From a virus (taxonomy: Duplodnaviria; Heunggongvirae; Uroviricota; Caudoviricetes), in the IMG/VR virus record IMGVR_UViG_2778261231_000014, positions 1 to 13,592 of that record: a stretch of DNA of 13,592 nt. The stretch is one strand, 5' to 3'. The notes beneath the pieces are model-generated. The model made no database searches, was not told the origin of the DNA, and was given only the letters and a program-made list of their open reading frames with translations. A program made the translations under genes and the position numbers. Within the stretch, counting starts at the first letter, position 1, and the number at the start of each line of letters is the position of its first letter. Positions 3,481 to 7,368 of the stretch are shown here, piece by piece.

Positions 3481-3597
3481 GTTTTGCTCCGCTCATGTGT
3501 AATCAACACCATGTTAATTCATGATGTGGATTAAATCAACATTATGGTGATGGAAAAAATCCACATGTTGTTTACCATGCATGGAGCGGAGGGTTTT
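3481..3597. promoter_or_regulatory. Immunity operator/promoter region (OR-like) between the divergent cro-like and cI-like genes
   Basis: Four copies of AATC(A/C)ACA or its complement at 3501-3508, 3525-3532 (TGTGGATT), 3534-3541, 3558-3565. 3525-3541 forms an imperfect 17-bp palindrome TGTGGATTAAATCAACA. A leftward TTGATT-17-TAACAT promoter candidate lies on the - strand. Confidence 0.6.
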
Positions 3598-4308
3598 ATG
3601 AGTAGCATTTCTGAAAGAATTAAATTTTTACTGGCAAGGGAAGGCTTGAAGCAGCGGGATTTGGCTGAGGCTTTGTCGACTAGCCCACAGACCGTCAACA
3701 ACTGGATAAAAAGAGACGCGTTAAGTCGTGAGGCGGCGCAACAAATATCTGAAAAATTCGGTTATTCTCTTGACTGGTTATTAAATGGAGAGGGTTCTCC
3801 AAAGAAGGATCTGGAGAGCAACATCCCGCCAGAGTCTGAGTGGGGAGTTGTTGATGCATGGGATAAAGACACCCCGCTTCCTGTTGATGAGGTTGAAGTG
3901 CCATTTCTTAAGGATATTGAATTTGCGTGTGGTGATGGTCGAGTTCAGTGCGAAGACCACAATGGATTTAAGCTGAGATTCTCCAAGGCAACGCTCAGAA
4001 GAGTGGGTGCAAATAGTGATGGTTCTGGAGTGCTTTGCTTTCCCGCTTCTGGTGACAGCATGGAGCCCGTTATTCCTGACGGCGCAACGGTAGCAGTCGA
4101 TACAGGCAACAAGCGGATTATTGACGGCGAACTCTATGCTATTAACCAGGGCGATTTAAAGCGCATAAAGCAGCTTTATCGAAAGCCTGGTGGGAAGCTA
4201 TTAATACGAAGCATCAATCGCGATTATGACGATGAAGAGGCTGATGAGGCAGATGTCGAGATAATCGGTTTTGTGTTCTGGTACTCGGTATTGCGATATC
4301 GCCGATAA
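3598..4308 (+). CDS. CI-like phage repressor (N-terminal XRE-type HTH plus C-terminal S24/LexA-like peptidase)
   Basis: HTH RIKFLLAREGLKQRDLAEALSTSPQTVNNWIK; S24 signature GDSMEP and a downstream Lys (LKRIK). Start ATG 3598 with GGAGGG RBS; in-frame ATGs from 3544 exist but overlap the operators. Confidence 0.85.
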   Translation: MSSISERIKFLLAREGLKQRDLAEALSTSPQTVNNWIKRDALSREAAQQISEKFGYSLDWLLNGEGSPKKDLESNIPPESEWGVVDAWDKDTPLPVDEVEVPFLKDIEFACGDGRVQCEDHNGFKLRFSKATLRRVGANSDGSGVLCFPASGDSMEPVIPDGATVAVDTGNKRIIDGELYAINQGDLKRIKQLYRKPGGKLLIRSINRDYDDEEADEADVEIIGFVFWYSVLRYRR

Positions 4309-4314
4309 TTTTAG

Positions 4315-4425
4315 TGGCCTGAAGAGACGTTTGGGTGATAAGAGAATATCTGATAGTAGGCGTGGTTACTTTGCTCTCGGTTGTTGCGATCGTGCTTATG
4401 GTGGCCTGATGAGACGTTTGGGTGA
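4315..4425. repeat. Two copies of a 25-bp direct repeat GTGGCCTGA(A/T)GAGACGTTTGGGTGAT, 86 bp apart, between the cI-like and KilA-N genes
   Basis: Copy 1 at 4315-4339, copy 2 at 4401-4425, one mismatch. Read directly from the sequence. Confidence 0.7.
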
Positions 4426-4457
4426 TTATTTTATTTTTCACAGCAATAGGATGATTT

Positions 4458-5219
4458 ATGACACAGTTTCAACTTGCATTAATCGCCAGAGAAGTTGATG
4501 GAGAAGTCATCCATCTTCGCACCAAAGACGGTTACATCAATGCCACCGCAATGTGCAAGTCTGCTGGGAAGCTACTTGCTGACTATACACGACTAAAAAC
4601 AACGCAAGATTTTTTTGATGAATTATCCCGCGATATGGGGATTCCCATATCGGAATTAATTCAATCATTTAAAGGCGGAAGAGCAGAGAATCAAGGGACT
4701 TGGGTTCATCCAGACATCGCAATTAACTTAGCTCAGTGGCTATCTCCAAAATTTGCAGTGCAAGTATCGAGATGGGTGCGTGAGTGGATGTCAGGCGAAA
4801 GAGCGCCTGCCGAACTCCCTATCCACCTTAAGCGGTATATGACAAACCGAGGCAGGGTTCCTCATACGCACTTTTCTATGCTTAATGAACTGACGTTTAA
4901 CCTGGTTGCGCCACTTGAGCAGGCAGGATATACGCTGCCAGAAAAAATGGTCCCTGATATTTCAGAAGGTAGGGTTTTCTCGCAATGGCTTCGTGAAAAC
5001 CGGGGTGTTGAGCCGAAGACGTTCCCAACATATAACCATGAGTACCCAGATGGCCGGACATTCCCGGTACGTCTATACCCAAACGAATATCTTGCAGATT
5101 TCAAACAACACTTCAACGAAGTGTGGCTGCCTCAGTACGCTCCTAAATATTTTGCAGAACGAGACCAAAGGGCATTGACGTTGATTGAGAAAATCATGTT
5201 GCCTGACCTTGATTCCTAA
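4458..5219 (+). CDS. KilA-N domain protein (253 aa) with an unassigned C-terminal domain
   Basis: N-terminal approximately 100 aa (INATAMCKSAGKLLADYTRLKTTQDFF...VHPDIAINLAQWLSPKFAVQVSRWV) fit the KilA-N/APSES-like fold. AGGA RBS; lower GC than the flanks. Confidence 0.65.
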   Translation: MTQFQLALIAREVDGEVIHLRTKDGYINATAMCKSAGKLLADYTRLKTTQDFFDELSRDMGIPISELIQSFKGGRAENQGTWVHPDIAINLAQWLSPKFAVQVSRWVREWMSGERAPAELPIHLKRYMTNRGRVPHTHFSMLNELTFNLVAPLEQAGYTLPEKMVPDISEGRVFSQWLRENRGVEPKTFPTYNHEYPDGRTFPVRLYPNEYLADFKQHFNEVWLPQYAPKYFAERDQRALTLIEKIMLPDLDS

Positions 5220-5227
5220 ATGTTATA

Positions 5228-5250
5228 CCCGGCCACCAAGCCGGGGTTTT
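5228..5250 (+). terminator. Putative intrinsic terminator after the KilA-N gene
   Basis: Stem CCCGGC / GCCGGG, loop CACCAA, followed by GTTTT. Sits between the convergent KilA-N and 65-aa genes. Confidence 0.4.
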
Positions 5251-5446
5251 ACTGCCCTTTCCGCACTATCTCAGCTGCATCCCTGTTCACACCCTTACCT
5301 ATCACGTTTCCCGTTTCCTTCCGGTACCGTTCCAGCTTGTCGATGATGTTTTGCTGGGTCATAGGTAAATCTGCCAGTGACAACTCCATGACCGCCCGCC
5401 CCATGGCGTGAACCATCATGTTCACTCTTTCTTCATCCAAGCCCAT
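5249..5446 (-). CDS. Small hypothetical protein (65 aa), divergent from the early-left promoter
   Basis: AAGGAG RBS 8 nt upstream of ATG 5446-5444; possible extended -10 TGATATGCT on the - strand upstream. No family recognised with confidence. Confidence 0.55.
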   Translation of the reverse strand: MGLDEERVNMMVHAMGRAVMELSLADLPMTQQNIIDKLERYRKETGNVIGKGVNRDAAEIVRKGQ

Positions 5447-5501: not shown

Positions 5502-5576
5502 AATCAACATAAAAATCAACAAGAAACGATTAAATCAACAAAATAAATCCACAAGGTGTTGACCTATAAATCCACA
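5502..5576. promoter_or_regulatory. Second operator-like cluster (OL-like): five direct copies of AATC(A/C)ACA
   Basis: AATCAACA at 5502, 5514, 5533; AATCCACA at 5546, 5569. Same motif family as the cI/cro intergenic region; the last copy lies between the -35 and -10 of the rightward promoter. Confidence 0.55.
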
Positions 5577-5587
5577 TGATGTTTAAT
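5559..5587 (+). promoter_or_regulatory. Putative early-left (pL-like) sigma70 promoter: TTGACC-17-TTTAAT
   Basis: TTGACC at 5559-5564, TTTAAT at 5582-5587, 17-bp spacer containing AAATCCACATGATG. Points toward the recombination-gene operon. Confidence 0.45.
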
Positions 5588-7228: not shown

Positions 7229-7368
7229 GCGAAAGCCCACCGAAGTGGGCCCGCCATGTCCGGCCTCACCGACCAAAGTTACACCGGAAACAACATTAAA
7301 ACCAAAGTTAACCCAATGGGCGCTATCAATGGTCCGGGGATTCTAACACCCAAAAATGAGGATCTCAC

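Follow-up and report, generated by a model that had tools for sequence, protein, structure and literature searches.

Under the idea of modular evolution, linker or boundary sequences act as the mosaic joints of lambdoid phages. One hotspot of such mosaicism is the interval between cI and N (Degnan et al. 2007, as cited in PMC8585504). The bstA gene sits behind cI, probably sharing its promoter, and the published aba element consists of 29 bp upstream plus 34 bp of bstA, with CCCGCC terminal repeats (PMC8585504). Rad52-like recombinases of phages, RecT of phi80 among them, make mosaics by recombining homologies that are short and diverged (PMC3945230). In T4-type phages, the PeSL elements are mobile regulatory cassettes, with a promoter plus terminator stem-loops (PMC2839356).

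We analyzed a pair of direct repeats in a phage sequence of 13,592 nucleotides, referred to here as the window. Like other lambdoid joints, the locus has a short conserved sequence between nonhomologous modules, breakpoints that coincide with it, and combinatorial flanks. It differs from them in that a specific gene end is kept as a noncoding relic, in tandem, enclosing a putative mini-gene. We give a probability of about 0.8 to the reading that the repeats are relics of a cI gene end at a recombination joint and that they bracket an 87-nt mini-cassette containing a small open reading frame (ORF). The features are as follows.

3501-3519, 3534-3552, and 3558-3576, no strand assigned: phi80-type OR operators, three 19-bp CI sites, exact match to the phi80 annotation (NC_021190)

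3598-4308, plus strand: phi80-type cI, 236 codons, ending ...FVFWYSVLRYRR-TAA; 97% identity to phi80 cI; Pfam Peptidase_S24 and Phage_CI_repr

4314-4339, plus strand: copy 1 of the repeat, read as a relic of a lambda-family cI 3′ end; 4315-4338 reads WPEETFG-stop; 25 of 26 nt as in lambda

4335-4409, plus strand: candidate small membrane-protein gene, GTG at 4335 to TGA at 4407-4409, predicted to encode MIREYLIVGVVTLLSVVAIVLMVA

4340-4400, plus strand: 61-nt insert (spacer), the body of the small ORF, nearly invariant in ~94 loci

4401-4426, plus strand: copy 2 of the repeat, read as a second cI 3′-end relic; 4402-4425 reads WPDETFG-stop

4458-5219, plus strand: KilA-N domain gene, a BstA-family abortive-infection homolog of 253 aa; Pfam KilA-N, 8e-27; phrog_6287 BstA, 2e-82

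5228-5255, plus strand: terminator-like hairpin with a T-run, closing the cI-small ORF-bstA unit

5502-5521, 5546-5564, and 5569-5587, no strand assigned: phi80-type OL operators, by phi80 operator match

All six phi80 CI operators were present without a mismatch (3501-3576 and 5502-5587). The cI coordinates were transferred from the phi80 annotation, which puts the start at 3598; the mechanical ORF begins at 3544, inside the OR operators. We take the KilA-N/BstA gene to be cargo behind the repressor, predicted to be expressed in the lysogen. At 253 aa, its product is shorter than the 307-aa BTP1 protein.

The repeat is GTGGCCTGA(A/T)GAGACGTTTGGGTGAT, and its two copies are identical at 25 of 26 positions, the single difference being A4323 versus T4410. 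An initial annotation had reported 25-bp repeats lying 86 bp apart; the pair is real, and we correct its size to 26 nt (4314-4339 and 4401-4426) and its start-to-start period to 87 nt, with 61 nt between the copies. In a repeat search, weaker similarity reached 5 nt further upstream, giving 31 nt (4309-4339 and 4396-4426) at 90%. The pair had been placed between the repressor stop and the KilA-N start, and it is indeed flanked by the repressor TAA (4306-4308) and the KilA-N ATG (4458). It had also been judged too long and too exact for chance. With up to 3 mismatches allowed, the window contained exactly 2 matches, and none of 200 dinucleotide-preserving shuffles reproduced the pair, in agreement with that judgment.

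We found the repeat to be the end of a cI gene. Lambda cI ends with cag tgg cct gaa gag acg ttt ggc tga t (...QWPEETFG-stop), and copy 1 is identical at 25 of 26 nt to its last 8 codons plus one base, at the cI-rexA junction. The lambda-type cI of phage PhiR5_2 ends with ...VIASQWPEETFG-stop, as does that of lambda itself (VIASQWPEETFG-TGA), and many wild phages end their real cI with the motif sequence. The window differs from these cases. Here, the motif lies outside any repressor ORF, is present twice, and stands behind a phi80-type repressor. The in-frame ORFs that end in copies 1 and 2 have only 7 and 21 codons. Because the window's own repressor is of the phi80 type and its reading frame ends (...FWYSVLRYRR-TAA) 5 nt upstream of copy 1, neither copy is part of the repressor gene and both are relics. 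We read both as noncoding relics of the 3′ end of another, lambda-family repressor gene. A literature search for WPEETFG gave no matches.

Paired sites for a regulator, perhaps the KilA-N domain itself, had been among the roles first suggested for the repeats. Two matching sites about eight helical turns apart, upstream of a gene for a DNA-binding domain, fit such a role, and the BTP1 aba element has terminal direct repeats that are functionally required (PMC8585504). Still, we consider it extremely improbable that the repeats serve phi80 CI, or KilA-N/BstA through an aba-like self-immunity element. The best comparisons with the phi80 CI operators left 7 to 10 mismatches of 19 to 20 positions (at least 7 in a 19-bp site), and no inverted-repeat pair was reported inside the 26-mers. 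The pair precedes ~25 different, unrelated downstream sequences, and the same KilA-N/BstA gene is also found with just one copy ahead of it. If BTP1 is taken as a guide, aba would be expected at 4429-4491, which leaves the repeats outside it, and the CCCGCC repeat of aba is unrelated to them.

Our locus resembles the BstA-aba prophage defense locus (PMC8585504): a BstA homolog, the KilA-N gene of the window, occupies the canonical place behind the repressor. In three other loci (L060, L074, and L157; L numbers are our handles for individual loci), the motif is likewise followed by a BTP1-type bstA leader with aba. The difference is that the 26-nt repeats are not the aba element and are independent of bstA. 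We rejected the repeats as an aba element since they lie at 4314-4426, upstream of 4429-4491; no CCCGCC-type terminal repeat was seen in the latter interval. We also rejected a tie to bstA in general, since most loci have the pair without bstA and bstA also occurs with a single copy.

RNA elements had been suggested as well. The region is conserved and intergenic, and its small hydrophobic ORF resembles a type I toxin, so that an sRNA, an attenuator, or the antisense partner of such a toxin could be imagined here. Fold z-scores were 0.07 on the plus strand and −1.41 on the minus strand. For this region, Rfam gave no match either at the gathering threshold or at E values up to 10, apart from chance snoRNA matches, and a promoter scan of 4300-4460 found no site on either strand. 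A structured or regulatory RNA is thus very unlikely.

Comparison with related phages and prophages located the breakpoints. Homology around the window changes at 4313/4314, 4401, and 4425/4426, every one of them at a copy edge. Phage phi80 shares cI, both copies, and the 61-nt insert; similarity stops at 4425, after which phi80 continues with gene 40A. PhiR5_2 is similar only from 4401 onward; its one copy closes a genuine lambda-type cI, with the same KilA-N/bstA gene directly behind it. HK225 matches two thirds of the window at 97% identity, and behind its phi80-like cI allele come one relic copy and different cargo. None of 5,426 complete Escherichia coli genomes contained the whole of 4250-4480. 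Phi80-type prophages, including the phi80 segments of DH10B, DH5alpha, and TOP10, matched 4250-4425/6, homology to E. coli KL53 likewise stopped at 4425/4426, E. coli CB7286 with its H-19B-type cI matched only 4313-4426, and ML35-like strains matched only 4401-4480. The initial annotation had proposed an alignment with relatives to see whether the copies bracket an indel. They do: HK225 and PhiR5_2 have one copy, phi80 has two, and the extra unit of two-copy relatives is the 61-nt insert plus one copy. Its idea of a duplication scar from moron insertion came closest to our reading, while missing the cI-end identity of the repeats and the gene-like nature of the insert. We rejected a transposable element with a target-site duplication, as the insert ends carry no inverted repeat. 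A 26-nt duplication equal to a gene end is also atypical for a transposon target-site duplication.

We then examined the motif wherever it occurred, using an IMG/VR scan with the motif core, the window, and five GenBank/RefSeq loci. A true repressor end was defined as an in-frame ORF of at least 150 codons, or at least 60 if cut by the contig edge; full-length examples had 216 to 259 codons. Of 130 occurrences, 81 were true ends of repressor ORFs from several cI families and 49 were relics behind unrelated repressors. Their flanks comprised 20 left types and 48 right types in 67 combinations. We regard the 26-nt gene-end sequence as an ordinary mosaic joint, a known kind of feature.

In our model, the 26-nt cI end would serve as a common joint for lambdoid reassortment, with repressor alleles exchanged on its left and lysogen-expressed cargo on its right. 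That cargo would include rexAB-type leaders, 40A, DUF6932, BstA, and terminators. Motif copies would supply the homology by which repressors or cargo are swapped and the 87-nt unit is gained, lost, or duplicated. Recombination between these copies would decide whether the unit itself (body plus motif), as a mini-cassette, is retained, lost, duplicated, or moved. These exchanges would be homologous recombination, plausibly by the phage RecE/RecT system, both proteins of which are encoded in the window, or by RecA.

In the window, phi80-like sequence meets lambda-immunity/bstA-like sequence exactly at copy 2. The change from the cassette type to the lambda-immunity/bstA type falls within 4411-4427, and an exchange there, inside copy 2, would have joined phi80 immunity and the cassette to a bstA-like gene found elsewhere behind a genuine lambda cI. 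The stretch identical in both parental types is only ~17 nt at this joint, and ~30 nt is cited as the minimum homology for Red-beta (PMC3945230). Since the shared stretch is below that minimum, this particular joint could possibly have been made by microhomology-mediated or illegitimate joining. As an observation on cargo of this kind, the DUF6932 gene lies downstream of the cassette in CB7286, and in KL53 (L004, 2603-3811) an ISVsa5 (IS4-like) insertion interrupts it.

To define the two-copy cassette, scans were anchored on the spacer or on the two copies and covered E. coli and Enterobacter prophages, IMG/VR, and metagenomes. They gave ~94 loci after chance matches were discarded (L179 to L181 from the viral scan; L188, L196, and L218 from the metagenome scan). 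The cassette had 11 left and 25 right flank types in 39 combinations and stood behind about nine differently ending repressor genes. In 9 of the 94 loci, copy 1 was the true end of a cI, reading ...VGKVVASQWP(E/D)ETFG. The ~25 sequences that followed copy 2 included a rexA-type leader, intrinsic terminators, BTP1-type bstA with aba, and phi80 40A; the bstA leader of the window followed it in ~10 loci. In the common cloning strains DH10B, DH5alpha, TOP10, NEB10-beta, and HST04, the cI end of phi80 is present together with both copies and the small ORF, at 98.9% identity to 4250-4425 of the window.

Copy 2 often differed from that of the window only at positions synonymous for cI (ACT, GGA, TAG), which is what exchange between relic copies and coding cI ends would be expected to produce. 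These variants, together with chimeric copies, are indirect evidence of homologous recombination within the motif. Relic copies have decayed in their 3′ halves: the stop was lost in L152, copy 2 was truncated in L135, and several substitutions broke the cI frame in L142. Recombination by itself would be expected to make the copies more variable, and recent spread, not selection, could be why the spacer varies so little. We also compared the spacer with cI tails, as it might be a decayed segment of a cI C terminus. Local alignment gave a P value of ~0.07 against 26 real cI tails and ~0.08 against the phi80-type tail, neither of them significant; a shared 10-mer, GGTTGTTGCG, at most hints at such an origin.

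The insert holds most of a small ORF. Its frame is open from the TGA at 4320-4322 to the TGA at 4407-4409, and the predicted peptide is M(I)REYLIVGVVTLLSVVAIVLMVA, of 23 to 24 codons. The ORF is built from the last 5 nt of copy 1, which contain the candidate start, the insert, and the first 9 nt of copy 2, which supply its last two codons and stop (Val-Ala-stop). An ATG start at 4338 was present in 56 of the 94 loci, those with G4340; the window has only the GTG at 4335. In loci whose copy 1 truly ends a cI, the start and the cI-frame stop share bases (GTGA/TGATG), a classic coupling arrangement. The Shine-Dalgarno (SD)-like sequence of the window is weak (GAAGAGA), and a common copy-1 variant reads GAGGTG, 8 nt, and ATG.

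We found coding-like properties in this ORF. The best 18-residue Kyte-Doolittle mean was 3.08, a value matched by 1 of 20,000 dinucleotide-preserving shuffles in the ORF frame and by none of 5,000 in any frame. Of the six polymorphic sites in the spacer, five were at third codon positions (binomial P of ~0.018, on sparse data). Three polymorphisms were synonymous, and the amino acid changes were only I/M, I/M, and L/I. By frame arithmetic, these third positions are also third positions of one antisense frame; that frame contains neither a start nor a stop within the cassette and is broken in the paralog described below.

A diverged paralog, MMRDYLIVGTVTVLTATVIFLIVA, was found on the metagenomic contig L140, immediately upstream of the cassette and itself followed by a full motif. 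It has the same length and 69% nucleotide identity, with differences at the three codon positions of 7, 4, and 11 and a dN/dS of ~0.39 from this single paralog. Only ~2 to 2.5% of random-mutation simulations retained an open and equally hydrophobic frame. On the minus strand of the same contig, ~330 nt past the cI stop, three small hydrophobic ORFs are followed by a terminator: a 39-aa ORF (MDDLIYPILLTLLIVGLVGVFMRLDKFFFKRRSDRDVPE), the diverged paralog, and the standard cassette. A degenerate-pattern scan for further paralogs yielded only L140, and local tblastn was too noisy to add members.

Searches with the peptide gave no family match in Pfam, NCBIfam, or PHROGs, and an exact look-up of all three candidate starts in a collection of 15 billion proteins found it absent. 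By tblastn against phages, phi80 was the only match, and the ORF is unannotated there.

We think it probable that the insert encodes a real small membrane protein with a single hydrophobic helix. The contrary view accepts the relics and holds that the 61-nt insert is neutral DNA, an older coding fossil, that hitch-hikes between the copies and makes no peptide. Recent spread would account for a spacer that is nearly identical everywhere, and the lone GTG and weak SD of the window, the empty protein and family searches, and the single diverged paralog all suit that account. What makes it unlikely in our judgment is a hydrophobic codon phase far beyond that of the shuffles, polymorphism concentrated at third positions with conservative amino acid changes, and a paralog that retains length, frame, and hydrophobicity despite 31% nucleotide divergence. 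In addition, the unit persists in ~94 loci though it is flanked by deletion-prone direct repeats. As a gene, the ORF is probably a modestly novel, previously unannotated element of the locus. We infer that it may be co-transcribed with cI from pRM, translated, and functional.

A separate question is whether the motif is kept for a role in cis on the mRNA, as a portable intercistronic junction or an RNA processing site, with recombination being secondary. Such a junction, with its stop/start overlap and purine-rich SD-like stretch, would couple translation of the next gene to that of cI or the small ORF. Many downstream ORFs do start at a TGATG or GTGA overlapping the cI stop, the motif stays intact in relics behind several unrelated classes of repressor, and the GAGGTG variant makes a good SD. 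Set against this, loci with one copy vary freely in the stop codon (TGA, TAA, or TAG) and the bases after it, relic copies show the 3′ decay described for L152, L135, and L142, and no RNA structure was found by folding. The bstA gene of the window, moreover, has its own SD and ATG 32 nt past copy 2. We therefore consider a cis role quite unlikely and retain the reading of the copies as gene-end relics at a recombination joint.

The 87-nt unit is not the only cassette flanked by the motif. YoaK-family genes occurred at a motif spacing of 125/126 nt and a 113-aa ORF at a spacing of 371 nt, and some arrays had three copies. Genes for the 32-aa YoaK-family proteins lay directly after the cI-end motif and were followed by another copy in six loci (L109, L115, L028, L057, L131, and L147). 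The candidate peptide resembles the YoaK-type small membrane proteins of enterobacteria (32 aa) in having a single hydrophobic helix in fewer than 35 aa, and its gene occupies the same slot directly behind the cI-end motif, before another motif copy. It differs in that the 23/24-aa peptide has no YoaK match in NCBIfam or Pfam and its translation is predicted only.

These cassettes lead us to a tentative and rather speculative extension of the model, possible at best. The cI-end motif may act as a docking site at which motif-flanked mini-cassettes load the highly transcribed slot behind the repressor, the hidden peptide being functional in lysogens. The cassettes would be the gene for the 23- to 24-aa peptide, YoaK-type genes, and other small ORFs, and they would expand, contract, and move between immunities, loosely like PeSL or integron cassettes. 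The likeness to PeSL cassettes (PMC2839356) is that short repeated intergenic motifs flank small novel ORFs, which recombination inserts, deletes, and shuffles. Unlike those elements, the cI-end motif is a relic coding end without promoter or hairpin, and no mini-circles are known for it.

The locus offers a base-pair-level view of how cargo is acquired behind a prophage repressor, in a slot that holds the defense genes RexAB and BstA. In our reading, a 26-nt gene end is reused as a joint, and its relics record past swaps. The region also matters for annotation: spurious ORFs of 75 aa arise on both strands, and a probable membrane-peptide gene of 23 to 24 codons lies hidden in it. This hidden gene is absent from protein databases yet present in phi80 and in the phi80-derived segments of DH5alpha, DH10B, and TOP10. 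If the peptide is expressed in lysogens, it would be a new candidate for prophage-conferred phenotypes. The two 75-codon ORFs cross the cassette in other frames (4271-4498 on the plus strand and 4214-4441 on the minus strand) and are by-products of the repeat, likely to be taken for genes in error.

A second element was seen near the joint. The cI-rexA spacer of lambda (L223, 260-330, minus strand) contains GGCAAGGTGTTCTGGTCGGCGCATAGCTG(A/G), which reads IGKVFWSAHS(W)-stop and looks like a gene end from another S24 repressor. It was found again flanking the cassette, to the right of copy 2 in L003 and L004 and to the left of copy 1 in L128, L130, L131, L138, and L156. We considered whether IGKVFWSA(H/Y)SW-stop is a real repressor end in L128 and L131 and rejected this, as it is a relic there too. 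This element appears to be a second portable junction element, with several gene-end relics seemingly layered behind cI.

Elsewhere in the window, Rfam matched the isrB Hfq-binding sRNA at 7230-7327 on the minus strand (38.2 bits; gathering score, 35), a position just upstream of the RecE-like gene. In L162, copy 2 is followed by a small hydrophobic ORF, MDMRKYLAIIIAAALAALIVWQWVLDVG, with an MR-x-YL start like that of the cassette peptide.
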